A DNA stretch of 35,567 bases, taken from the IMG/VR virus record IMGVR_UViG_3300013902_000010, positions 62,001 through 97,567 of that record; one strand, written 5' to 3'. Below are positions 2,838 through 27,925 of this stretch, one piece after another. This DNA comes from an uncultured virus (IMG/VR IMGVR_UViG_3300013902_000010). Its lineage: Duplodnaviria; Heunggongvirae; Uroviricota; Caudoviricetes. The notes beneath the pieces were generated by a model, which saw only the letters and a program-made list of their open reading frames with translations, was not told where the DNA came from and did not search any database. The position numbers were made by a program, and so were the translations under genes. The stretch's first letter is position 1. Every line of letters starts with the position of its first letter.

Positions 2838-2881
2838 TAGGCGAAGTAATAAACATTGTTGAACTAATAATATAAAAAGGT

Positions 2882-4100
2882 ATGCAAACAAACGTAACCT
2901 TGGAGGAAGCCTTGCAGCGTGCCTCCCGACCTTTGCAGAAAAAGATAATGCATTCCGTGGAGTTGTTGAGGAAAGCGGAAAAGATTGCGCTTTCCTACGA
3001 TAAGACGGATGGCTTCTATCTCACTTTCAGCGGAGGCAAGGATAGCCAGGCTCTTCTACATATAGCGCAAATTGGGGGGGTGAAATTCAAACCTCACATG
3101 AGCCTCACGAGCGTGGACCCACCCGAAGTTATTCGTTTCGTGAAGCGAAATTACCCCGAAGTGGAATTGATAAAGCCAAAGGATTCTATCTATAATATCG
3201 CCATTAAGCGCAAGATTCTCCCTACGATGAGAGTAAGATGGTGTTGTGCGGAATACAAGGAGAATGCCGGTGCAGGAAAAGTTACTTTGATAGGCATTCG
3301 TCATGCAGAGAGTTCTCGTAGAGCCAAACGCAACGAAGTAGAGATTTCTTCCCGAAAGTTTAGTGGCTCGCTCGAAGAATTGGAAGAGTACCGACATGAA
3401 CAACGAGTAAAACGTGCCAAGAAAAAATCGCAAAAGGATGGCATCAATATCATGAATGCCGACCAAGAGCAAACATTGGGCTGCATCCATGGAAAAGAAT
3501 CCCTGCTTATCTCTCCTATCATCCATTGGACGGAGAAAGATGTTTGGGAGTTTCTGAACGGCGTAGTGCAAGTGCCGCATTGCGAACTATACGATGAGGG
3601 CTGGCATCGTATCGGCTGCATCGGTTGCCCGATGTCAAACAAGAAACATCATTTGATGGAAGAGAAACGTTGGCCTCACGTAAAGCGCAACTGGATTAAG
3701 GCTATCAAAGCCATCAGAAATGGGGGGGTATTCAAAGGAGAATATATTTGGTGGAATATCCAAGCGAACCCAAGAATGTGGGGGGGTGGTCGGAAGTCCA
3801 AACCCAAGGTACGTTATCAACAGAGAATGGTTACAACGACCAGAACAATGGCTACGAGTTCCGAGCCAACAACCAAGGCTTCTACATCAACGACAAGGTT
3901 ATGCAAGCCTTTCGACCATTTTCGGGTTTTCTGAAAGCTCCTCGCCTGACCGCTTGACTGAGGAGCAAGAAAATGAAATAGCGGAAAACATCTATGATTG
4001 GTGGATTTCGGGCATCGGCTACCGAGAATGGTATGCCAAGAAGTTCCTTCAACAAAAGATAGATTTCGATTTCTCGGAAGAGAAAGAGGACGATACATAA
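2882..4100 (+). CDS. PAPS reductase-family (CysH/DndC-like) protein; C-terminus out of frame across G7 tracts
   Basis: SGGKDS PP-loop, RWCC and RIGCIGCP motifs in ORF 2882-3934. The plausible natural C-terminus (ENIYDWWISG...QQKIDF) is in ORF 3720-4100. G7 runs at 3074-3080 (in frame), 3722-3728 and 3780-3786. Confidence 0.8.
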
Positions 4101-4922: not shown

Positions 4923-5139
4923 TAAGGTGCCGCCGTTCCGTCCCGATCCTGAGCACTGGACTCGAAAGGGACCGCATGGGTGGAAGGCGAAGGTGGCTTA
5001 TGAGACGGAGGACGATGCCTGCGAATACTTGCAGTTGCACCCTAAGATTGTGGCGCAAGGGTATCGGGCGTACCAGTGCAAGGTTTGCCAGAAATGGCAC
5101 ATCGGGCACGAAAATACATTAACATTTAAAGACAGATGA
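4885..5139 (+). CDS. Small basic protein with a CxxC...H motif
   Basis: AYQCKVCQKWHIGH; overlaps both neighbours. Confidence 0.55.
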   Translation: MAMRSKKSNHYHNKVPPFRPDPEHWTRKGPHGWKAKVAYETEDDACEYLQLHPKIVAQGYRAYQCKVCQKWHIGHENTLTFKDR

Positions 5140-5803
5140 TAGAACTGAATAAAGTATATAATGAGGATTGCTTGGAGGGCATGAAGCGAATACCCGATGC
5201 AAGTGTGTCGCTCGTACTTACGGATATTCCTTATAACGAATGTAATCGCCCAGATAATGGATTGCGTAGTTTAAATAAAGAATATGCGGATGTAGGTTTG
5301 TTTAATCTAAAAGAATTAACATCTACCCTTTGCAGAAAAACAAAAGGTAGCATTTATATGTTCTGTGGTATTAATCAACTTTCTACTATTCGTTCCGTGA
5401 TGCAAGAGTATAAGCTTAGCACGAGGGTTATAGTTTGGGAAAAGACAAACCCTTCACCGATGAATGGCAATAAAATTTGGTTAAGCGGTGTAGAGCTGTG
5501 CGTATATGGCAAGAAAACGGGGGGGTGTTTAACCTTCATTGTAAGAATACCGTGTTACGTTATCCTTGCGGACATAGCAATATACACCCCACACAAAAGC
5601 CCACTAAACTGTTTCGTAAGCTGATTCTTGCAAGCACTAATGAAAACGATACGGTTTTAGACCCATTTTTGGGCAGCGGCACTACTGCCATCGCTTGCAT
5701 CAAGGAGAAGCGCAACTTCATCGGGTTTGAACTAAACAAGGAGTATTACGACAAGGCTTGCAAGCGCATCGAATTGGAGATGATGCAGCCTACCCTATTC
5801 TAA
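5136..5803 (+). pseudogene. Beta-class N4-C/N6-A DNA methyltransferase, frameshifted at G7 (likely phase-OFF)
   Basis: LTDIPY catalytic motif in ORF 5136-5624; HPTQKP and DPFLGSGTT in ORF 5477-5803. Adding one G to the run at 5519-5525 joins them into a 222 aa protein. Confidence 0.85.
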
Positions 5804-8502: not shown

Positions 8503-9414
8503 ATGTATATTTCAATTTTAGATTACAGTAGTGGAACTGTCACAATTATCAACGACGAGGATAATGCGACTAAGAATTTGCAGAATGACGATATAGAAGC
8601 TATCCTATATGCCTTAGGATTTAAGGATTCCCAAATCAGCTATATGGTGACAGAGGATGATCCGATGGAAGACGCGTATGGCTACGTTACGCTAAACGAG
8701 TTGGCCGAGGATGCTGATGAAGACATCATAGAGTGGATAAACCGTCAAATCAATGTTTCTGCCGAGAGTGAAGAAACCGATGGGGATAACATTTCAAATA
8801 ACAATAATAATATGGATAACAAAAAAGATTGGGTAGGCGGGACTGCTTCCGTCTTTAAAACATTAGGCGCAAGTAATCATACCGATACCGACCGCCAGCG
8901 TGAAGACTATTATGCCACGGAGCCTGCGGCTACGGAGTGGCTATGCAAGATTGAGAAATTCGATGGTCCGATATTGGAGCCATCGTGCGGCGAGGGTCAT
9001 ATCAGTAAGGTCTTGCTGAAGAATGGCTACGAGGTAGAGAGTCGAGACTTGGTAGATAGAGGTTACGGCGATGGAGGCATAGACTTCTTGGCGATAGACA
9101 ACCTCTCGTGGAACGGCGATATTGTTACCAATCCGCCATACAAATATGCCAAAGAGTTTGTAGAGAAGTCTTTGGCGATTATTCCAGATGGGCATAAGGT
9201 AGCGATGTTTTTGAAGCTTACTTTCTTAGAGGGTAAGGGTAGAAGACATCTGTTTAACACTACCCCCCCCTCAAGGGTTTGGGTATCAAGCAGCCGCTTG
9301 AAATGTGCGCCTAATGGCGACTTCAACGCTTTGCAGGGTAGTGCAGCCGCTTACGCTTGGTTCGTATGGGAGAAAGGTTACAAGGGCGACACCATTGTGA
9401 AATGGTTCAACTGA
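8503..9414 (+). CDS. N6-adenine DNA methyltransferase with an acidic N-terminal extension
   Basis: DYYAT, ILEPSCGEG (SAM binding) and VTNPPY (catalytic) motifs. Possible internal start at 8812. In-frame C8 run at 9263-9270. Confidence 0.85.
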   Translation: MYISILDYSSGTVTIINDEDNATKNLQNDDIEAILYALGFKDSQISYMVTEDDPMEDAYGYVTLNELAEDADEDIIEWINRQINVSAESEETDGDNISNNNNNMDNKKDWVGGTASVFKTLGASNHTDTDRQREDYYATEPAATEWLCKIEKFDGPILEPSCGEGHISKVLLKNGYEVESRDLVDRGYGDGGIDFLAIDNLSWNGDIVTNPPYKYAKEFVEKSLAIIPDGHKVAMFLKLTFLEGKGRRHLFNTTPPSRVWVSSSRLKCAPNGDFNALQGSAAAYAWFVWEKGYKGDTIVKWFN

Positions 9415-9635: not shown

Positions 9636-9949
9636 CTACAACTCTACGAACACGCATAGCTGCTGCCCTTGGCTTGTAAGGGCATTGGCGAGCCTACCCC
9701 CCCGATTGTTCTACTTCGACGTATCGCCGACGTAGGATAGGCGAGGTCGCAAACGCCACCCACGGGACAATCGGTATAACCCTGTTCCGTGGCTTGGCGA
9801 ATGCGAAGGAAGGTATCGCCCGATGCGGCATCGCTCACCATCTGAAGGAATGGCAACGATGTGTCGTATATTCTATATAATGTACCATCTGGATAGAAGC
9901 CGTATCGCTTGCCATTCTTGATGATGGTACCTCGCTTGTATTGTGGCAT
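9636..9949 (-). pseudogene. Orphan C5-MTase target-recognition-like module, frameshifted at G7
   Basis: LRIRQATEQGY...CDLAYPTSAIRRSRTI followed by G7 (9697-9703). G8 gives GGGRLANALTSQGQQLCVFVEL*, 104 aa in total. Confidence 0.65.
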
Positions 9950-16285: not shown

Positions 16286-16507
16286 TCATATCCCGTCCTC
16301 CTCTTCGTGAAAGATGATGCGGTCGGCGGGAGTGATAGGCTCGTTCTTCGATGGGTGCTTGGTACCATCCTCCATGCGCTCCTCTCTTTCCGTATGCTCT
16401 CGCTCTTCGTCCCTGCCTATCTTGGAGAAGCCTACCAGACTGCAAGCCCCCGCGAGGATCAGGAAGAGGACGGCAATGATGAGACAGGCTAAAAATATTT
16501 CTCTCAT
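16286..16507 (-). CDS. Small membrane-anchored protein
   Basis: N-terminal hydrophobic segment and a charged tail. Confidence 0.55.
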   Translation of the reverse strand: MREIFLACLIIAVLFLILAGACSLVGFSKIGRDEEREHTEREERMEDGTKHPSKNEPITPADRIIFHEEEDGI

Positions 16508-16510
16508 CGC

Positions 16511-17104
16511 CTAACCCTCCTTTCCTTGGTTGTCCGATGGAGTGAGCACGCTCTTCACGTCCTCGTACATCGCCATTTCCAACTTGCCTGGCTCATCACT
16601 CTCGTCGAAGGAGTAATGACCCACTGCCAATAGCTGTCCGTTCTCCTGGGTAGCGTCTGCCTCGCTCTTAGCAGTGGCACGGATTACCATGATGTCGAAC
16701 TCCTTGATAAGTCCTTTCAGCTTGCGAGGGTCGATGGTGTGCATATCGCTTCGGGCGTTGAGACGGATGCGCTGAATGTCGGTCTGCGACAATACCCTGC
16801 CCACATCCTTGTCGGCATCACGCACAGCCTGGGCTTCGATGTCGATGCGCTGCTGCTCGTAGGCTTGCTGCAGCAGTTGATAGTTTTGCCATTGTGCTGC
16901 GTGCTCCAGGAATCGGCGGAATCCTTGCTCGCCTTGTGCCAACTCTACGATGGCAAGCTGCTCCTCTATCAAGAGAATCTTGTCTTTCTCCTGCCAGTGG
17001 AGCAAGCCACGGCGGTTGAACTCATTCACGATGGCGAAGGCTGTGGAGAGATTTCTTAGCTCTCGAAGCTGCCTCTTGTTTTTCTTTCTTCTGAATGGCC
17101 ACAT
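16511..17104 (-). CDS. Hypothetical protein
   Basis: 197 aa ORF with an A-rich leader. Confidence 0.65.
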   Translation of the reverse strand: MWPFRRKKNKRQLRELRNLSTAFAIVNEFNRRGLLHWQEKDKILLIEEQLAIVELAQGEQGFRRFLEHAAQWQNYQLLQQAYEQQRIDIEAQAVRDADKDVGRVLSQTDIQRIRLNARSDMHTIDPRKLKGLIKEFDIMVIRATAKSEADATQENGQLLAVGHYSFDESDEPGKLEMAMYEDVKSVLTPSDNQGKEG

Positions 17105-17148
17105 AATTTCCTTTGTTTTTATATTGTTATTGTTGTATGTAAATTCTT

Positions 17149-17305
17149 TTATTCATACCCGATGATGATTAAGAAGTCCTTGGCGATGGAAGAGATGGCA
17201 TTGCTAACTCCACCCCCCCCGTATTTCCAGCCTTTGCTCATGCTTGGAATGATACCAATCTCCATCGCTTCTGCCACGGCTTGCGCACGTCCTTACTTGT
17301 AACAT
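17149..17305 (-). pseudogene. TRD-like module G (OFF; G8, in frame as G7)
   Basis: MLQVRTCASRGRSDGDWYHSKHEQRLEIR, then G8 (17213-17220). G7 gives GGGVSNAISSIAKDFLIIIGYE*, 51 aa. Confidence 0.7.
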
Positions 17306-17472
17306 ACTCCTATCAAGTTATCGGTTGTGAGAAACGTGCCGATGCACTGCATCGTCTCGTGGGCAAAGATGAGCGAGACTTGCTTGTCTCGGAAATCATT
17401 CCTGCCCGTAAGCTTGCGCACCTGCTTGGCGTGCTCGGTTCTGGCTTCTCTTATCAGAAATATTCTGTGCAT
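17293..17472 (-). CDS. TRD-like module F (intact)
   Basis: MHRIFLIREARTEHAKQVRK...MQCIGTFLTTDNLIGVCYK*, 59 aa. Resembles module E. Confidence 0.7.
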   Translation of the reverse strand: MHRIFLIREARTEHAKQVRKLTGRNDFRDKQVSLIFAHETMQCIGTFLTTDNLIGVCYK

Positions 17473-17638
17473 AATAAATTGTCTTTTGTCACAGTGGAAA
17501 TCGTGTTGCTCCACGGCTCACGACTCATCCTGTGATATTTGTCTTGATACTTGCACCCCCCGTATCTCCGTAAAGACGGCGGAAGGCTTTTGCCTCTTCC
17601 GTGCGGTAGTGGGTAAGGATGGCTCTGCGCTCACTCAT
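17454..17638 (-). pseudogene. TRD-like module E (OFF; G6, in frame as G7)
   Basis: MSERRAILTHYRTEEAKAFRRLYGDT, then G6 (17556-17561). G7 gives GGCKYQDKYHRMSREPWSNTISTVTKDNLLCTEYF*, 61 aa. Confidence 0.7.
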
Positions 17639-17780
17639 AGATTAACAGAAGCATAGTATGTTGACCATGGTTGTCGTAGAGGCCGCCCCAGCCATCGTAT
17701 CTGGAAGAGAGTGCCGTGGAATACCTCCCCCGAAAACTTATCGTGTCACCTCGCTTCACGAAAGGTCTTGTCTTATTCAT
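17631..17780 (-). CDS. TRD-like module D (intact; G5)
   Basis: MNKTRPFVKRGDTISFRGRYSTALSSRYDGWGGLYDNHGQHTMLLLIYE*, 49 aa, with 8-nt overlaps to both neighbours. Confidence 0.7.
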   Translation of the reverse strand: MNKTRPFVKRGDTISFRGRYSTALSSRYDGWGGLYDNHGQHTMLLLIYE

Positions 17781-17919
17781 AACTTACTAATATTGCTTGT
17801 GCTTTAACCTTAGACGTTGTATTAGGGATGATATTAGCGAATCCCTCCTTGTGATAATGCGCAGTAATCGCCCCACCGATTCTCTGCGAAGGAGTATTGA
17901 TGAAACAGATCTCAATCAT
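17773..17919 (-). CDS. TRD-like module C (intact)
   Basis: MIEICFINTPSQRIGGAITAHYHKEGFANIIPNTTSKVKAQAILVSYE*, 48 aa. Confidence 0.7.
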   Translation of the reverse strand: MIEICFINTPSQRIGGAITAHYHKEGFANIIPNTTSKVKAQAILVSYE

Positions 17920-18063
17920 ACTCTATCAATATCTTTGGTTTATCAACATCATGCCCTTTACCCCCCCAGATATACACAGGGCGATACCCTTGGGCGATAC
18001 CACCACGCCATTTTGTGATGGCGAGTATTTACCGAGGATGATGGGGAAGAAATCTTGCCTCAT
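17912..18063 (-). pseudogene. TRD-like module B (OFF; G7, in frame as G8)
   Basis: MRQDFFPIILGKYSPSQNGVVVSPKGIALCIS, then G7 (17961-17967). G8 gives GGGKGHDVDKPKILIEYD*, 50 aa. Confidence 0.7.
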
Positions 18064-18244
18064 AATTCTATCATTACTACCGTCATAGGATAATGCGCTA
18101 ACGAAAGAATATTGGTTGGCCCGATATTCTCGTACCTTGTGGTAATTGTCGCTGCACACATATCGCTTGTTACGTTGACCGGTTGTTGCCGCCCCCCTCA
18201 TTTAAGAGGCGAGATTTTCCAACCTTGGTTAGACAAAATTTCAT
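18060..18244 (-). pseudogene. TRD-like module A (OFF; G6, in frame as G7)
   Basis: The ATG overlaps the MTase stop (ATGA). MKFCLTKVGKSRLLNE, then G6 (18192-18197). G7 gives GGRQQPVNVTSDMCAATITTRYENIGPTNILSLAHYPMTVVMIEL*, 61 aa. Confidence 0.7.
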
Positions 18245-19644
18245 TCTTCCGAAGCCTTTCTATTCAGATTCTCCAAATATCTCTCACGGAAACCAGAGTA
18301 TTCGCTTGGCTCTGTGCCATCTTGTTTCCACGAAGAATAATCGTAGGTAAACTTGCCGACAATCATTTTCTCGCAGATAACTTTATCCAGTTCCGTAGGC
18401 TTCATTTCCCAGCCATTCACTTCCTCCATCCAAAACGAGAGCCATGTCTTGAGGAACATCGCATCCTCATGCTTGGGTGGAAGGTCGAACTGCACGAACA
18501 ATGCGCTGTCCTTGTCGTTTGCCTTGAGGAATTTTGATACCGCATCGTCTTTCAGGAAATATCTCTTATCCACCTCTTCTTCCAAGACATCCTCCAATTT
18601 CTTTTCCAGTTTGACAGGCTCAGGGAATTGGTAATCGAAAGCCACGTCTCTTCTCATCGAGAGGCAGAATACTCGGTCTCTGTTCTGTGGCACACCGTAA
18701 TCCTTGGCATTCAGTCTCGCCCATCGGTTCACGTAGCCAAGGCTCTCCAACTTCTGCAACCATTTCTTGAAGTCGGGCATGAACTTCTCGCTTACCAGTG
18801 CCGCCACATTCTCTTGCAGGAGATACTTAGGTTGCAATACTTCGATGGCATCGGCTACTCGCCAAAGCAAGGCACTTCGGGTGTCGCTACCCTCTTTCAG
18901 TCCCATCTGCTTGCCAGCCTGGCTGATGTCTTGGCAAGGAGATGAATAAGTAAACAAGTCCACCTCTCTGCCTTGCAAGCTATCCTTTACTTTGTGCCAA
19001 TCTATCTTGGTAATATCGCCAAGTGCTCGGTCGGCATATTGCGGAAACACGAGGTTGTGCATCTGACAGGCGTACTTGTCGATGTCGCTCCAACCCATGC
19101 ACGTCCATCTGAAATCGGGATGATCCTCACGCAAGGCATCAGCCGCCATCAACTGGCTGTCATATCCGCTGAAGGTAGTGATAATCACTTTCTCCTCTGG
19201 AGCCACCTTGTCGCCAGGCTGGATATTCGCCTTGTCGCTTGGGTCTTTCTCCACCGGCATAGACGGCAACACGTCGTCGGGAAAGAAATCATCGAAGAGC
19301 GATGCTTGCTGTGCCTGTGGTTGCTTGGGTGCTGGGTACCAAAGCTGCGAGTAGATGCTTTTCAGCACATCTACTACGATGGAGTTGCCAGCCTGCTTGT
19401 ATTGTTGGCTCGCCGATATAACCATATCATTATCGTTACCTTTTACAGCCTTGCCAAAGATATGTGCCCAAGCATCTTTGCCGAATGCGCTTGATATGCG
19501 AGTCTTGGCAAGGGATATGCTTGCTTGCATCAGGAGGATTACTCCGTCCCGAATGCCCATCAATCTGAAACACTCCTTGGGAGTCAGCTTTCTGATGGCA
19601 TACGATTTTATCGTTCTGTCCTTGAAGTTTATTTTTGTTATCAT
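18241..19644 (-). CDS. Circularly permuted C5-cytosine DNA methyltransferase core
   Basis: Motif order: IX (RKLTPKECFRLMG), X (YKQAGNSIVVDVL), linker, I (FSGYDS variant), II (WSDID), III (GDITKI), IV (SSPCQDIS), VI (QENV), VII (AKDYG), VIII (PQNRDRVF). Confidence 0.9.
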   Translation of the reverse strand: MITKINFKDRTIKSYAIRKLTPKECFRLMGIRDGVILLMQASISLAKTRISSAFGKDAWAHIFGKAVKGNDNDMVISASQQYKQAGNSIVVDVLKSIYSQLWYPAPKQPQAQQASLFDDFFPDDVLPSMPVEKDPSDKANIQPGDKVAPEEKVIITTFSGYDSQLMAADALREDHPDFRWTCMGWSDIDKYACQMHNLVFPQYADRALGDITKIDWHKVKDSLQGREVDLFTYSSPCQDISQAGKQMGLKEGSDTRSALLWRVADAIEVLQPKYLLQENVAALVSEKFMPDFKKWLQKLESLGYVNRWARLNAKDYGVPQNRDRVFCLSMRRDVAFDYQFPEPVKLEKKLEDVLEEEVDKRYFLKDDAVSKFLKANDKDSALFVQFDLPPKHEDAMFLKTWLSFWMEEVNGWEMKPTELDKVICEKMIVGKFTYDYSSWKQDGTEPSEYSGFRERYLENLNRKASEE

Positions 19645-19657
19645 TGTTACTTTGTTT

Positions 19658-19831
19658 TTATAATTCTATCAAAACATTACCAACGTTTCCACTTACCACG
19701 GCATAGGCAGGTTTTTTTGCATTGCTGATACAAAGTTCACTTACACCTCGCTTGTCTGGTGTATCGCGATAAAAGCGAATAGTATCATCTGCTCGCCACA
19801 CCATACGGATAAGGTCTTTTCTATTACTCAT
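19658..19831 (-). CDS. TRD-like module U3 (intact; in-frame A7)
   Basis: MSNRKDLIRMVWRADDTIRFYRDTPDKRGVSELCISNAKKPAYAVVSGNVGNVLIEL*, 57 aa. Confidence 0.65.
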   Translation of the reverse strand: MSNRKDLIRMVWRADDTIRFYRDTPDKRGVSELCISNAKKPAYAVVSGNVGNVLIEL

Positions 19832-19980
19832 ACTCTAATAATATTGCGGGTGGGTGGCTATCTGCCTTTACGCAACGAGATGTTCCATTAAAGAATATCC
19901 GATGCTCGAAACAATCAGAAAGATTGAAATATACCCCCCCCTATTTTGGGGATATGATAGTCTATCTTAATTTTATTCAT
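19824..19980 (-). pseudogene. TRD-like module U2 (OFF; G8, in frame as G7)
   Basis: MNKIKIDYHIPKI, then G8 (19934-19941). G7 gives GGVYFNLSDCFEHRIFFNGTSRCVKADSHPPAILLEYE*, 51 aa. Confidence 0.7.
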
Positions 19981-20155
19981 ACACGATTGCTATTACTGGT
20001 GTCTGCCCACCGCCTAACCCCATTGCCGAGGTGAGCGTGAAGCAAATATCCTTCAAAGAGCAAAAAGTATTCATTCCATGCGCTTGCATATTGCCAAACA
20101 CGGAAGTAGTCTCTATTTTTTTTACGATGATGGCTATAGCCTCTGCTCTAATCAT
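19973..20155 (-). CDS. TRD-like module U1 (intact; in-frame A8)
   Basis: MIRAEAIAII...ICFTLTSAMGLGGGQTPVIAIVYE*, 60 aa. The ORF-track start at 20266 runs through the tRNA, so the ATG at 20155 is preferred. Confidence 0.7.
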   Translation of the reverse strand: MIRAEAIAIIVKKIETTSVFGNMQAHGMNTFCSLKDICFTLTSAMGLGGGQTPVIAIVYE

Positions 20156-20181
20156 TGATATACCTTTTTTATTTATAATAG

Positions 20182-20254
20182 AGCTGAATACAGGACTCGA
20201 ACCTATGACCTTTCGCTTACAAGGCGAACGCTCTGCCAACTGAGCTAATCCAGC
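20182..20254 (-). tRNA. tRNA-Thr(UGU)
   Basis: Cloverleaf GCTGGAT-TA-GCTC AGTTGGCA GAGC-G-TTCGC CT TGT AA GCGAA-AGGTC-ATAGG TTCGAGT CCTGT-ATTCAGC-T, 73 nt. CCA is not encoded. Confidence 0.92.
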
Positions 20255-20579
20255 GAGAAGACTCATCTATCCTCACGAACCGATGAGCTGAGTAGAATAA
20301 AAAAAATTACTTTTATTCTGTACTTTATTTTAAGAAAGCAATCCTCTATACTCACGCACCAAGGATATGCAAGATTTTTGATGATAATATTTTTAGATGT
20401 CAAAGTCAAGTCATAATGCAGCTTCCGCCGAAGCCATGACACTTTTAACATGGGATCTATCTGCTATGTTTTGCTTAGAAACATTTGCAGCTCTTTTTCC
20501 TAAAAAGAAGATAAAATCCAAAAGTATTCACCTTATTACTATTTATCACTTATGCGAATATGAAGTATCTTATAACGAA

Positions 20580-20891
20580 TCAATGCGTGATGAATCGGGT
20601 GCCATCCACCTCCAACACCAAGATGTCGTTCACCATTCTTATCTCCTTGCTCTTTACAAACTGAACCATGCGTTGATGGCGAAGCACATCTACCTTTAGG
20701 CAAACGCACTCACCTTCATCCACGTGCCCAGTCTTGGTAAGAAACTTGATGTAGAACGGCTTCCGCTCCACCTTTCTTGCGGTTTGTGGGTGGATATACC
20801 CCGTAACTTGTTGCCCGCTACGTGGGTCTATCCACTGCCACTTCTCGCAGAATTGTCTAAGATTGGTATAACTTTGTCGATATTTTGCCAT
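20580..20891 (-). CDS. Hypothetical phage protein
   Basis: 103 aa ORF in the leftward operon. Confidence 0.65.
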   Translation of the reverse strand: MAKYRQSYTNLRQFCEKWQWIDPRSGQQVTGYIHPQTARKVERKPFYIKFLTKTGHVDEGECVCLKVDVLRHQRMVQFVKSKEIRMVNDILVLEVDGTRFITH

Positions 20892-20952
20892 GATATAAAA
20901 TCCGTGTAATCCGTGTAATCCGTGCCTTATTCATTCAGTCGCACCCAAAGCC

Positions 20953-21654
20953 CTACCCCATCTGTCCGAAGTCGTGGTGGTCGCCGTGACTCAAAGGTTG
21001 CTCCTTATCATCGTCATACGGTGGGAACGAGGCTTTCAGGAATCTTGAGAGCAATCTATCCTTCACCTCTCGCTTATCCTTGATAACCTGCTGTCGTTGG
21101 TGCAGCACATCGGGGAAACAGACGTTCTTCACAGGGTTGCCCCAGGTGAGCGCATTTAGCCAGTTGGCTTGGTCGGGCAGGAACTGGAGCGAGTAAGCGG
21201 AAGTCTTGCCGCTCATCTTCTCCAACATCGGCCCCGATAGAATAAGAGCCTTGTCTTTCTTGTAGAGCACCATGTGAGAAGCTACGTTGCTCACGTCCTG
21301 GCTGCGGGCATAGAGCAACCTATCCTTATACTCGGCGAGGTGAATATCCATCAGGCTCTCAGCATTCTTGCTGGTGGTGAGCACCAAGTGGGTAATCCAT
21401 TCTCGCTCGAAACACTGCTGTAAGAACACCGCCGTCTCTGGAAGTATCTGAGGCATGGCGAGCACCATCACCGTATAAGTTTTCTTGTGGTTGGGTGCAT
21501 CGTCCACCAAGAAGCCGATGGCTCTGAAGAACTTCTCCATCGTTACGTCGCCATGCGTATAGAACGTGAGCGTTCGTCTTGGTGCCTCACCCACTGCCTT
21601 GGGTAGTTTCCTATCCACGCAGCAGGGAGGTATGAAAAGTAATGTATCATCCAT
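20953..21654 (-). CDS. Hypothetical phage protein
   Basis: 233 aa ORF in the leftward operon. Confidence 0.7.
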   Translation of the reverse strand: MDDTLLFIPPCCVDRKLPKAVGEAPRRTLTFYTHGDVTMEKFFRAIGFLVDDAPNHKKTYTVMVLAMPQILPETAVFLQQCFEREWITHLVLTTSKNAESLMDIHLAEYKDRLLYARSQDVSNVASHMVLYKKDKALILSGPMLEKMSGKTSAYSLQFLPDQANWLNALTWGNPVKNVCFPDVLHQRQQVIKDKREVKDRLLSRFLKASFPPYDDDKEQPLSHGDHHDFGQMG

Positions 21655-21706
21655 ATCAGAAGAGAGTTTTTTCTAATCCTTGGAAGTTTCTTTATCGGGA
21701 ATTTTC

Positions 21707-23862: not shown

Positions 23863-26800
23863 TTAGAACGGCAAATCGCTCTTGTCTATTTGCGATACCA
23901 TATCGGCACCACTGCCAGGAGTATTGCCATTGTTACCAGCCGAAGAACTCCTTCTGCCCTGCCTACGAGAAACGAAGCTCTTCCAGCGTTCCTCCTCTTC
24001 CATCGTGAGCGATACGATGTTTCCATCATCATCACGATATGGCATTGGGTCAGGCGACTCGGCATATTCTTTTGCGATACGTTTCAGTTCGCTGTAATCC
24101 TTCGGTATCGGGTCCTTGCCTGGACGGTAGAAGAAGAAGACGTGCGAACTGGTCTCTATCCGTCGGATATACTTAGGTTCCACGCTATCATCGTTCTCCC
24201 ACTCCCTGCCTACGAAGTATTCTTGCGTTACCCAGGCTTGCAGCTTGAAGCAACCACGGTGCTTGTCGCTGTTGTTGGATAGCAACTGAGGAGGGTTACA
24301 GGTAATGCCCATATTCTCGCAGTAGTCCTTGATTTTCTTCTTGAACGTGGCACGAGAGTATTCTTTCGACTTGCCCTCACTAGCATCCGCCCAGTCTCTC
24401 ATAAACTCTCGGAACATATCTTCCGTGCAGATAGGCACGCCATACACCTCGTTTCTCGCAAAGAAGTACTCGAAGTATCTCACGATGCTCTCGGTCAGCT
24501 TCTGCACCATCTGACGGCGGCGAACGTTCTGCTGAGGAGCGATGGCAAACGTATGGTACCGCATGATAAACTGCACTGCCAAGGCGCATACATATATCGT
24601 TTGATTGCGGTCGGTATCTGTCAGATGCTCCGGCTCCATACGGAAGTGCTTCATCACGTCCTTGGGCGATCGTGCCGGCTTGCGCTTCTGCGGATTGGCT
24701 CGTGCAAATCTATCCGAGAACGATACCAAGGGAAAACGACCGATGGTGGAATCATCATCATCGCTCAATGGATTGTTGCTCGTGATAACGTGCTCTGGCG
24801 AGTCTTCCATCTTGAAAGTGATAGGGTCTCCAAACTTTCGCTCTACGTCGGTACCATTCGTTACCTTGTTGTAGAAGTATTTCATCGGGAAACTCTTGGG
24901 CTTATCCTCCCAATGCACCACCCTGTACTTGCCAGGGAATAGGAGCAATGCCGACAAACTGAACTTGGCATCCGAGATAGTGGCGAAGCTCTTCATGTTT
25001 ACGCTCAACACGTTCACAGCCGAGCCTACCACCAAGTTTATCATCACGCTCTTGCCCGAACCACCGCTGGCTTGCTTCTCGTCTTGGATATTGTCTTCCA
25101 GGAGATAAGGGCAGATACTCTGCATATCATCCCAGGAGCGATAACAGACACGTCCGATGCAAGAAATCATATTGGCGAAATGGGAATTGATAACCGCCAT
25201 CTCGTCGGGCGACAAAGGCTCCTTGTTTCTCATCGCCGATTGCTCCACCTCCCAAAGGGTATTAGAACATCCTCTGATGATACGCAGGATAGGCCAAAGG
25301 TCTCTCTCCTGCTTGCCTTTCCAATCTACCGTCCATCGGTAGGTCTGGCTCCACTCTTCCAGCTCTGCCCTCATACGACCTATCTCGTCGATGGTGAAGA
25401 CAGGAGAACCGTCCTCGTTGCGCATCTCTTCCTTTTGGTTGATGGCATTCAGCCGTTCTCGATAATCCTGGCTTTCGCTGATAATGAAAGGTGGATTGAA
25501 CACCTTCATCGTGAAGTCGTATGGCTTTCGGGCGAGCGATGGAATGAAGAAGTTTATCTTGTCGTAAGATACCGGTGTTATCGCTTCGGGTGTTATCTTC
25601 AGTGCCACATTATGGAAGTAGAAATACTCCGTATGGGCATCGAATGATTCCGCAAAGTCTATCACCATGCTCTGCAAGCCGCCAGCCGATTTCTCCGAAA
25701 AGTTCTTGTCGATGAGATTGGCGCAATCCGACATCATCTTTCGTTCTTGGTCGTTGTGTCGCCAACTCTGTTCGATAAACTCAAGGAGCAATGTCTTCGC
25801 TGCCTGGATGATGCTCTTGGCATCTATGTATTCCACGAAGCACCTATCAAGGTGGATGTATTGCCCCACGAGGTCGGTGCTGTCAGGGTCTATCATTCTA
25901 TAATATCCGTGGCACGTCATAAACAACCATACCTTTGTAGGCGACACCTTGCAGGTAGGTGGCTTCGGCTTGCCGCTTCTTGGGTCTCTCGAATAGTCGA
26001 TTTCAAAAGGGTCGGTGTTCTTGGCATCCCTTAGCTTGGAATAGAGCGGAATCTTGATGTCATGGTCGAACTTGAAGTTATCGGCATCCGTCATGTGGTA
26101 AGACATCATATAGTCTCTCACCGAGCGAGGGGTGCAACCATACAACCATTTCCACCTTTGATTATACTTGCTGCGGAATGGCTCGGGAAGCATCGCATAG
26201 CATAGGTCGCTATACTTGGAGGCGATGGCTCCACAATCCCTTTGACTGGCGATGTCGTTAGGATAGAGGATAATCACCCTCTCGGCAAATCGCTTCATCT
26301 TCTGATATTGCACGGCATTGAAGTCAAGCTTCTCTTGCCTCCACTGCCCATGGTCGATATACCAGAAGTTTCTCCTACCGATGGAGAAAGCCACATGGTA
26401 CCAACAATATTTCTGAAAGTGATTGTCCGAAAACTTCTCGCTTCGCAAGGAGCGCATAGCGTAATAGATGCTCAATGCATCTTCGGGCGTACGACAAAAC
26501 ACGATGTTCTGTGCCTTGATTTCGCCCGCCTCAATATCTATCTGCTCGGAATGGAAGGTGCCTTTCGGCGTACCGTCCTGTTTCTCGTTCTCTACCCAGA
26601 TTTCTTCTTGCTCGGTATATTGCTCGTAAGGGTCGAATTGTTCGATGGCAGACTTTACTGCCGTCGATTTCTCACTGCGATGGTCCATCGCCCAGGTGAA
26701 CACCTTGTCGCCCATAAGCCACTTGCTTACCTTTCTCACGGTATGTCCCTCGGCTGTGCTGAAGACAATCGGGTCTTGCTGCATGGCAGGACGAAAGAAA

Positions 26801-27555
26801 CAACCGCATGAGCCTTGTGGGGCTATTACGTCAGTAGCGAAGCAAACAAACAGTGGATTCCAAGGCGTGCCATATATCACTTCGCTCACCAGTTGCCCGT
26901 CCCTCACCACATTAGGCAGGGTAACTTGATCTACCGCATAGATACGGAAGTCATTATTGAGCATCGTGGTGTCGAAGTCCTTACCAAAACCAAAGACCGG
27001 CAAGCCTTGCTGCAATGTGACTTCGCACCCCAAGGATGCAAGCTCCTGGGGGTTGAAGTCAGTCTTGGGTAAAAAAGAAAATGTCTCGATTGTTTGGGGT
27101 GAGATGGTACGATAATCCATCTTGGCGAAGAGCATAGGCCACTTGGCTCTCGTCTGCTCATTGTCGCCATATACTCGTACCACAAGGTCGTGGCAGAGCC
27201 TTAGCAAACTGGCTCCGTGCATCGGTAGGTTGCGCATGGCAGCATATAGCTCAAGCGCACCATACCCCGACTTACCCGTCTTGGTACACATCCATCGGAT
27301 AGCACCATGCTCGGCTTGCTTGTTGCCATCTACCCCTATACCATTATAAAGACCGCCTCGCTGGTTCTTATAGATGATGAAGTGAGGGGTCTGCTTGGAA
27401 TGGGCATCATCCGATGCACCATCGTCAGCCACCTTCTTCTGGCAGAACGGACAGAAGCAGGCTATCTGATTTTCTATGTTTTGCTCGTCGGCAGGCTTCA
27501 CCAAGAAAGTCATGTCGATGTTAGCAAGCTGGTTCATTATCGGATGATATAACAT
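23863..27555 (-). CDS. Large primase-helicase-like replication protein
   Basis: N-terminal CPFC zinc-finger-like motif, TOPRIM-like PEDALS/ILYPND segment, Walker A GGSGKS with VHWED and ITSN (SF3-like), and an SDLPF tail. Confidence 0.7.
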   Translation of the reverse strand: MLYHPIMNQLANIDMTFLVKPADEQNIENQIACFCPFCQKKVADDGASDDAHSKQTPHFIIYKNQRGGLYNGIGVDGNKQAEHGAIRWMCTKTGKSGYGALELYAAMRNLPMHGASLLRLCHDLVVRVYGDNEQTRAKWPMLFAKMDYRTISPQTIETFSFLPKTDFNPQELASLGCEVTLQQGLPVFGFGKDFDTTMLNNDFRIYAVDQVTLPNVVRDGQLVSEVIYGTPWNPLFVCFATDVIAPQGSCGCFFRPAMQQDPIVFSTAEGHTVRKVSKWLMGDKVFTWAMDHRSEKSTAVKSAIEQFDPYEQYTEQEEIWVENEKQDGTPKGTFHSEQIDIEAGEIKAQNIVFCRTPEDALSIYYAMRSLRSEKFSDNHFQKYCWYHVAFSIGRRNFWYIDHGQWRQEKLDFNAVQYQKMKRFAERVIILYPNDIASQRDCGAIASKYSDLCYAMLPEPFRSKYNQRWKWLYGCTPRSVRDYMMSYHMTDADNFKFDHDIKIPLYSKLRDAKNTDPFEIDYSRDPRSGKPKPPTCKVSPTKVWLFMTCHGYYRMIDPDSTDLVGQYIHLDRCFVEYIDAKSIIQAAKTLLLEFIEQSWRHNDQERKMMSDCANLIDKNFSEKSAGGLQSMVIDFAESFDAHTEYFYFHNVALKITPEAITPVSYDKINFFIPSLARKPYDFTMKVFNPPFIISESQDYRERLNAINQKEEMRNEDGSPVFTIDEIGRMRAELEEWSQTYRWTVDWKGKQERDLWPILRIIRGCSNTLWEVEQSAMRNKEPLSPDEMAVINSHFANMISCIGRVCYRSWDDMQSICPYLLEDNIQDEKQASGGSGKSVMINLVVGSAVNVLSVNMKSFATISDAKFSLSALLLFPGKYRVVHWEDKPKSFPMKYFYNKVTNGTDVERKFGDPITFKMEDSPEHVITSNNPLSDDDDSTIGRFPLVSFSDRFARANPQKRKPARSPKDVMKHFRMEPEHLTDTDRNQTIYVCALAVQFIMRYHTFAIAPQQNVRRRQMVQKLTESIVRYFEYFFARNEVYGVPICTEDMFREFMRDWADASEGKSKEYSRATFKKKIKDYCENMGITCNPPQLLSNNSDKHRGCFKLQAWVTQEYFVGREWENDDSVEPKYIRRIETSSHVFFFYRPGKDPIPKDYSELKRIAKEYAESPDPMPYRDDDGNIVSLTMEEEERWKSFVSRRQGRRSSSAGNNGNTPGSGADMVSQIDKSDLPF

Positions 27556-27925
27556 TTATTCTTCTATATTTTAATATACCAACGACAATAGACCCAGCGA
27601 AATAGGCGAGGCCAAACTTTCAAGTGTTACCATCCTGCTTTCCAGATTAGATGCTCGCGATATGTCGTTATCGAGTACCAAAGGCTTACTCGCATCACGC
27701 TTCCCGAAGCCTTAAATTCGGGGGGGTACCGCATAGGGTAGGAGCAGTTAGAATCTTTGCTATCTCGGCTCCCCTCCCCGACTGATTCAAATTAAAGCGC
27801 AAGACGTTTCAGCGCAGAATGGGTGGTTACATATTCGCAGGGGCGTTTCCGCTACCCTTCGCCCTTCGTGGGTCTATATCGTCAATATCATTTTTCATAC
27901 TTTGTTATGGTTCTCCCTGATGTAG

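Follow-up and report, generated by a model that had tools for sequence, protein, structure and literature searches.

Why should half of the mini-genes that surround a phage methyltransferase be broken by a single base, each of them at a run of G? This question is raised by a stretch of 35,567 nucleotides (in the following, the window) that forms the final 35.6 kb of the 97,567-bp record IMGVR_UViG_3300013902_000010 of IMG/VR, an uncultured virus of the Caudoviricetes. According to CheckV, the record is 98% complete. On the minus strand of the window, ten mini-genes of about 50 amino acids (aa) each are arranged around one C5 cytosine methyltransferase gene, three of them (modules U1 to U3) before it and seven (modules A to G) after it. 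An earlier note, made from the letters of this DNA, had proposed that five of the modules are switched at poly-G tracts.

Here, we observe that the tract lengths change far faster than the surrounding DNA, and that otherwise intact frames are toggled both ways. Module-by-module switching by slipped-strand events is well supported at the genome level, i.e., by the comparison of related sequences. We hold it to be quite probable that the G runs act as contingency loci, with mini-genes that would encode recognition subunits of the methyltransferase and tract states that would set the methylated sequences. As a plausible predicted consequence, the lineage would keep changing which DNA sequences are methylated and would in this way escape host defences.

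Reading frames and G tracts of the module array

The row of mini-genes starts downstream of a tRNA-Thr gene (anticodon TGT, detected by ARAGORN; 20181-20254, minus strand), which lies directly upstream of the array. The mini open reading frames (ORFs) comprise 48-62 aa, and the stop codon of one overlaps the ATG of the next. Every module has its own ATG and stop codon and overlaps its neighbours; none is fused into the methyltransferase polypeptide. The latter, a protein of 467 aa encoded at 18241-19644 on the minus strand, is called the core in the following.

Five modules, all on the minus strand, are intact and look as the earlier note had described them. U1 (19973-20155, 60 aa) carries an A8 run in frame, and its stop overlaps the ATG of U2. 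U3 (19658-19831, 57 aa) carries an A7 run, again in frame. The run of module C (17773-17919, 48 aa) is interrupted and reads GGTGGGG, module D (17631-17780, 49 aa) has a run of only G5, and module F (17293-17472) encodes 59 aa.

The other five, also on the minus strand, are out of frame (OFF) in the window, each at a G tract that was found where it had been located before, as a C run on the plus strand and a G run on the coding minus strand. Module U2 (19824-19980) carries G8 at 19934-19941; its in-frame length is G7, and the loss of one G yields a 51-aa ORF ending on the ATG of U3. Module A (18060-18244), whose ATG overlaps the stop codon of the core (ATGA), carries G6 at 18192-18197 and is in frame at G7 or G10. 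Module B (17912-18063) has G7 at 17961-17967 and is in frame at G8. Its tract codes for the Gly-Gly-Gly of a motif that is conserved across 25 aligned B-type modules. Module E (17454-17638) has G6 at 17556-17561, and at G7 it becomes a 61-aa ORF that stops 19 nucleotides (nt) inside module F. Module G (17149-17305), the last of the array, has G8 at 17213-17220 and is in frame at G7. A change of one base restores the whole module in all five cases, by removal of a G in U2 and G and by addition of one in A, B and E. Frame arithmetic also bears out that the restored frames of U2, A and B end on the following ATG. All five tracts code for Gly-Gly(-Gly). At its present length of G6, module E is read as a 37-aa ORF, the stop codon of which shares an ATGA with the start codon of a further ORF; the latter comprises 24 aa and carries the C-terminal part of E.

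The frames were also judged by homology, i.e., the possible frames at each tract were scored against natural, tract-free ORFs of relatives. Four modules give a clear result: in U2, B, E and G, one frame reaches 67-102 bits, compared to 29-67 bits for the others. In detail, the corrected frame of U2 scores 67 bits against the natural ORF L011:3838-3987 (other frames 29 and 46 bits), that of B 89.4 versus 60.5 bits, that of E 102 versus 66.6 bits, with 39 unique tract-free natural orthologues, and that of G 83.6 versus 58.2 bits. The frame of A is not decided by homology, as 79.3 bits versus 75.1 and 72.8 bits lie within the margin. However, in a locus of 99.2% identity, L094, A is a natural 62-aa ORF, in frame with G10.

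Tract length in near-identical genomes and relatives

Four loci closely match the window, namely L003 from a viral collection and L093 to L095 from metagenome assemblies, each with approximately 3.0-3.3 kb aligned. They show 99.2-99.4% identity to the window, with 15-21 substitutions, and 16 of the 17 gap columns fall in the tracts of A, B, E and G, the four that are shared. In the window, these tracts have 6, 7, 6 and 8 Gs, respectively, and none of the four modules is in frame. L003 carries 6, 8, 8 and 8 (B in frame), L093 carries 6, 8, 8 and 7 (B and G in frame), L094 carries 10, 8, 6 and 7 (A, B and G in frame), and L095 carries 6, 7, 8 and 7 (G in frame). Five genomes thus display five distinct ON/OFF patterns, and all four combinations of B and G occur; the change must therefore be recurrent. 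The natural ON alleles can be read directly, that of A in L094, that of B in L003, L093 and L094, and that of G (51 aa) in L093 to L095. A contig from a public sequencing run (X1), which has 12 substitutions in common with L003, adds a B tract of G9, such that lengths of 7, 8 and 9 are found for B among near-identical genomes; the contigs of this run break at tract G. The locus shows three features of a contingency locus: a mononucleotide repeat inside the coding sequence (G6-G8 in five modules), a repeat length that is polymorphic between otherwise near-identical genomes, and an otherwise intact frame that is toggled by this length, with both states occurring naturally.

Eleven pairs of loci with at most 1% substitutions allow a comparison of run types. 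G runs of at least 8 differ in 11 of 17 cases, A/T runs of at least 7 in 4 of 21, and A/T runs of 6 in none of 51.

L003 also differs from the window in the upstream modules. Window positions 19660-20177, which hold U1 to U3, have no counterpart there, and elsewhere the two are 98-99.6% identical. The upstream set appears to have been swapped as a cassette relative to L003.

The wider comparison is based on 80 loci, kept from 138 relatives of the core in viral contigs. On their coding strand, we counted 231 G runs of at least 6, compared to 17 C runs of this length. The G runs concentrate in arrays on both sides of the core and peak at G7-G8 (53 runs of 6, 80 of 7, 70 of 8, 23 of 9, three of 10 and two of 11). 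The tract sites group into 49 sets of orthologues, and at one and the same site the runs can measure between 2 and 11. Relatives do carry G tracts at the positions seen in the window, and these tracts, 5 to 11 Gs long, leave the module in frame or shift it in one or the other direction; tract lengths and ON/OFF states vary among related phages, a point that the earlier note had wanted checked by an alignment of homologous loci. By homology, 69 of 233 tracts were called in frame, 62 need one G fewer and 56 one more; 42 are ambiguous and four have no homologue.

A sharp dependence on length is seen at orthologous sites in 81 loci, after removal of 84 ambiguous sites (42 each among the runs of 3-5 and those of at least 6). 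Runs of up to 5 are in frame at 328 of 339 classified sites, versus 118 of 187 out of frame, in both directions, for runs of at least 6. The share of sites out of frame is 3/82 at G3, 4/106 at G4 and 4/151 at G5, and then 27/41 at G6, 42/54 at G7, 29/67 at G8 and 17/20 at G9. The B-type site, present in 73 loci, shows the same pattern: short (at most 5) or interrupted runs are ON in 57 cases and OFF in one, both runs of 6 are OFF, and pure runs of at least 7 are ON in six and OFF in seven. As proteins, the B-type modules are conserved, with 22 invariant columns in 25 sequences.

The tracts are not a product of chance, because both the distribution of run lengths and the usage of Gly codons speak against it. 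Over the whole genome (97,567 bp), we counted 14 G/C runs of length 5, three of length 6 and 14 of at least 7. A first-order Markov model (100 simulations) gives 14.65 runs of length 6 and 4.1 of at least 7, with a maximum of 10 for the latter. Compared to the simulation, runs of 6 are thus depleted and runs of at least 7 enriched genome-wide. The 2.8-kb array alone holds 5 of the 17 G/C runs of at least 6. GGG is the rarest Gly codon of the phage (107 of 1505, i.e., 7.1%, in 64 long ORFs), and in the long ORFs 5 of 106 Gly-Gly pairs open with GGG.

The permuted core and its putative recognition subunits

The core is a member of the C5 cytosine DNA methyltransferases and exhibits motifs I, IV, VI, VIII, IX and X of this family. 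Its residues 181-378 match Pfam PF00145 (E-value 8.8e-52). The protein is circularly permuted, with motifs IX-X ahead of I-VIII. In the alignment to M.MpeI (chain 4dkj), core residues 203-363 correspond to chain positions 100-274, residues 14-30 to positions 332-348 and residues 75-103 to positions 362-390; the latter two segments match motifs IX and X. The recognition region of M.MpeI, at about chain positions 275-331, is left unmatched in the core. The permuted alignment is seen against the chains of both M.MpeI and M.HhaI.

A megablast search of window positions 16500-21700 against GenBank phages gave no match, and the protein search yielded only partial matches, all below 60% identity. Apparent permuted methyltransferases in Bacillus phages turned out to be two adjoining ordinary methyltransferase genes. 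Among the related loci, L026, L031, L043, L044 and L063 have one in-frame stop at conserved core residues, with alignments that are otherwise collinear; the stop is TAA in four of them, and in L063 it is a TGA that falls on a Trp position. In L004 and L006 (records G003 and G004, complete at approximately 97-99 kb) the core is intact, and that of L004 has no adjoining module-like ORFs.

What could the modules contribute to such a core? We infer from a docking model that they may be stand-alone target-recognition subunits acting in trans. The model of the core with module D scores 0.70, compared to 0.00 for the best of three controls, and the pLDDT (predicted local distance difference test) of the partner lies between 36 and 75. 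In calibration, 116 of 157 solved complexes attained the mark used, compared to 2 of 215 mismatched pairs. The docking runs share at least 36% of contacts. In the model, residues 42-48 of module D, which represent the C-terminal strand shared by the modules, form an antiparallel pair with core residues 13-20, which immediately precede motif IX. The contacts on the core comprise residues 13-20, 78-87, 314-323 and 346-399, those outside the strand lying near motifs X and VIII. The position so modelled is the place that a recognition domain, located between motifs VIII and IX, would occupy.

Searches with module profiles point to small proteins. A B-type profile found 70 matches among 1.84 billion representative proteins, and all but one are small (33-178 aa); the exception is a 1277-aa protein for which no stretch is matched. 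Many of the B-type matches end at the position of the tract. When longer proteins with an E-type module were sought, only hybrids of adjoining modules, 107-144 aa in length, came up.

Separate modules around a single core call for a comparison with known C5 methyltransferases. The multispecific enzymes of the Bacillus phages SPR, phi3T and rho11s combine one core with several recognition domains of approximately 40-60 aa. The array would be similar to them in this respect, with several short putative recognition domains for a single catalytic core. In contrast, the SPR domains are arranged in tandem within one polypeptide and are all expressed, whereas the array modules are separate ORFs, half of them with a slippery tract. 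The array is therefore not of the single-chain SPR type, since its modules have their own ATG and stop codon. M.BssHII is circularly permuted, and M.AquI is a C5 methyltransferase of two subunits; the likeness here lies in motifs IX-X preceding I-VIII or in the assembly from two polypeptides. Neither of them is known to possess arrayed alternative recognition subunits or a switch based on repeats.

Tracts are also found in other modification genes of the genome. Ten of the 12 tracts in the window are located in the module array, in two other methyltransferases and in a PAPS-reductase-like gene. One of the two, an N6/N4-type DNA methyltransferase that stands apart from the array (the "orphan", 5136-5803, plus strand), is broken at a G7 run (5519-5525) into two ORFs that overlap. 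Its first half matches phrog_67 over 120-244 and its second half over 266-348; PF01555 is found on the second half. According to frame arithmetic, the orphan is in frame at G8. The window has G7 and the near-identical genome G001 has G9, such that the gene is OFF on both sides of the in-frame length. The other, a third DNA methyltransferase (phrog_799; 8503-9414, plus strand), has a C8 run at 9263-9270, which is in frame and spanned by the profile alignment; in G001 this tract is C7. Over 6,031 nt at 99.4% identity between the window and G001, five of six gap columns fall in three G/C tracts (lengths 7/9, 8/7 and 7/9). The earlier note had calculated up to 32 states for the array and 64 with the orphan. 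Differing ON/OFF combinations between near-identical genomes do exist; the figures themselves are arithmetic, and the window has further tracts.

The PAPS-reductase-like gene (PF01507, phrog_424; 2882-4100, plus strand) has three G7 runs at 3074, 3722 and 3780, and part of it is shared with a second ORF (3720-4100) that is read in a different frame. Window positions 2850-4067, with this gene, have no counterpart in G001. A G7 run in the coding sense (9697-9703) is found close to the end of an ORF of 101 aa (9644-9949, minus strand) and is G9 in G001. Another G7 run, at 27720-27726, is intergenic, upstream of a gene for 1230 aa (23863-27555). Outside the window, four G/C runs of 7-10, one of them a C10, are located at G000:C1 positions 26834, 37977, 42923 and 53510, in short ORFs or between genes. 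The same record encodes a 474-aa reverse transcriptase (phrog_1423, G000:C1:6615-8036) adjoining a tail-fibre-like gene, an arrangement suggestive of a diversity-generating retroelement within this phage. The PHROGs found in the genome also include an endolysin and a protease.

Alternative explanations and biological meaning

Several observations weigh against the reading of the array as a set of contingency loci that gate recognition subunits. Concerning the switch, all tract lengths, including those of X1, were taken from assembled contigs; X1 is the one run in which the stretch is present, whereas runs X2 and X3 gave no cover of it, which speaks neither for nor against switching. Module E is G6 or G8, and never the in-frame G7, in the five assembled genomes; the X1 contig has no indel at E (G6). 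In the 11 near-identical pairs, tracts of G6-7 differ in none of 11 cases, and three of the five tracts of the window are that long. The ratio of ON to OFF is 69:118 among classified tracts, near the 1:2 of no frame selection, which is equally what neutral slippage would give. The core itself has a nonsense codon in 5 of 81 loci. The complete relatives G003 and G004 carry the core, with no module-like ORFs beside it and with the B-type module absent from both genomes. Concerning function, none of 11 modules matched Pfam, the search of the PDB gave no hit, and no sequence relatives of the modules were found among known recognition domains or full-length methyltransferases. The docking result may reflect a mere likeness to single-chain methyltransferases, and the fold of the partner is uncertain in two of three runs. 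Finally, the overlaps of stop and start codons suggest translational coupling and, therefore, the switches are perhaps not fully independent in expression; an OFF module may lower the translation of the next one.

Part of these points would fit a neutral decay by slippage, with G runs as a mere hazard in dispensable genes and OFF modules as young pseudogenes that play no adaptive role. The ON:OFF ratio, the nonsense codons, the relatives with a core only and the lack of an ON allele of E in the strain cluster all agree with it. Drift, however, should not make or keep pure runs at many sites in a phage for which GGG is the rarest Gly codon, and the depletion of runs of 6 together with the enrichment of longer ones is genome-wide. 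Furthermore, ON alleles recur among near-identical genomes, the tracts are concentrated in DNA-modification genes, and the frames beyond OFF tracts are intact and conserved, although this is true by construction for the 118 OFF calls. Overall, we regard neutral decay as improbable. It is still less probable, and indeed very unlikely, that the out-of-frame tracts are homopolymer errors of sequencing or assembly, in which case all true tracts would be in frame. The data are contigs, and assemblies of similar strains disagree on tract lengths. But the variation concerns G runs of at least 6 specifically and largely spares shorter ones, and in the near-identical pairs the A/T runs of 6 and the G6-7 tracts do not differ at all. 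Differences of two and four bases occur, also in a contig named as having 34x coverage, and truncated products that end at the tract exist among representative proteins. Errors can, moreover, create neither tracts nor a codon bias.

A last alternative is programmed recoding, by which ribosomal frameshifting or transcriptional slippage would yield full-length modules from out-of-frame DNA. Long homopolymers can provoke slippage of RNA polymerase, and some low-level expression from OFF alleles could arise in this way. A recoding signal would, however, keep a single out-of-frame arrangement, and what we find is the opposite: the same site may be in frame, +1 or -1 depending on the genome (69 ON, 56 in need of one more G and 62 of one fewer), and the majority of orthologues are plainly in frame, their runs being short or interrupted. 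We consider recoding the least credible of the three, with hardly any probability left to it. The preference of the earlier note for slipped-strand length variation over a uniform -1 frameshift is in good agreement with the in-frame, +1 and -1 states of the same sites across genomes.

For switching by slipped-strand events, the following course may be envisaged. Slippage of the DNA polymerase during phage replication would add or remove Gs, presumably frequently within a population. Each change in length would put its own mini-gene in or out of frame, as is seen between genomes. An expressed mini-gene product would use the C-terminal strand common to the modules to dock onto the permuted core, at the N-terminal strand of the latter; the core has no recognition domain of its own. 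The states of the tracts would then determine which sequences the phage methylates, and the population would hedge its bets against two threats, the cutting of unmethylated DNA by restriction enzymes and the attack by methyl-dependent nucleases.

Related strategies are known from other systems. In phage T2, a mononucleotide A run in the DNA-modification gene agt was described as a contingency locus (Gomez, Barrick and Waters, bioRxiv 10.1101/2025.10.21.683753). The agt gene shares with the array a repeat within a modification gene and reversible frameshifts that hedge between defences against modified and unmodified DNA. It differs in being one gene with A runs, for which switching was measured, whereas the array has many G tracts in separate mini-genes and the evidence is comparative. 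Campylobacter phages of the genus Fletchervirus carry poly-G tracts in receptor-binding genes (Sorensen et al. 2021, Cell Rep., cited in bioRxiv 10.1101/2025.10.21.683753). According to this citing text, several G tracts of 7-11 create subpopulations, which is similar to the present case, but they gate receptor-binding proteins and adsorption and not the specificity of DNA modification. In bacterial phasevarions, repeats switch Type III mod and Type I hsdS/hsdM genes (e.g., PMC7383803). There, a change in repeat length likewise turns a DNA methyltransferase or its specificity ON or OFF; phasevarions, however, belong to cellular restriction-modification with N6-adenine methylation and usually one or two switches, whereas the array concerns a C5 enzyme of a phage, the putative specificity modules of which, up to ten in number, would be gated one by one.

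In the open-access papers and preprints searched, we found no description of poly-G-gated recognition mini-genes of a phage methyltransferase. Repeat switching of methyltransferases is textbook knowledge in bacteria, and for a phage DNA-modification gene it was reported only recently. The array multiplies this switch: one core would be served by as many as ten putative specificity modules, each gated separately, in a layout that is conserved across many uncultured phage genomes. From a practical point of view, small ORFs that appear frameshifted at G runs in such phage assemblies should be neither fixed nor dropped as errors. We see about an even chance that a widespread lineage of large phages uses a core completed in trans by interchangeable, poly-G-gated recognition mini-proteins of approximately 50 aa, and that, with further tracts in other DNA-modification genes, a single genotype thereby gives rise to a cloud of methylomes as a hedge against both restriction enzymes and methyl-dependent nucleases. 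If true, this would represent a compact natural means to reprogram the specificity of C5 methylation. If the modules are indeed trans-acting recognition subunits, the array would be the phage counterpart of a phasevarion.

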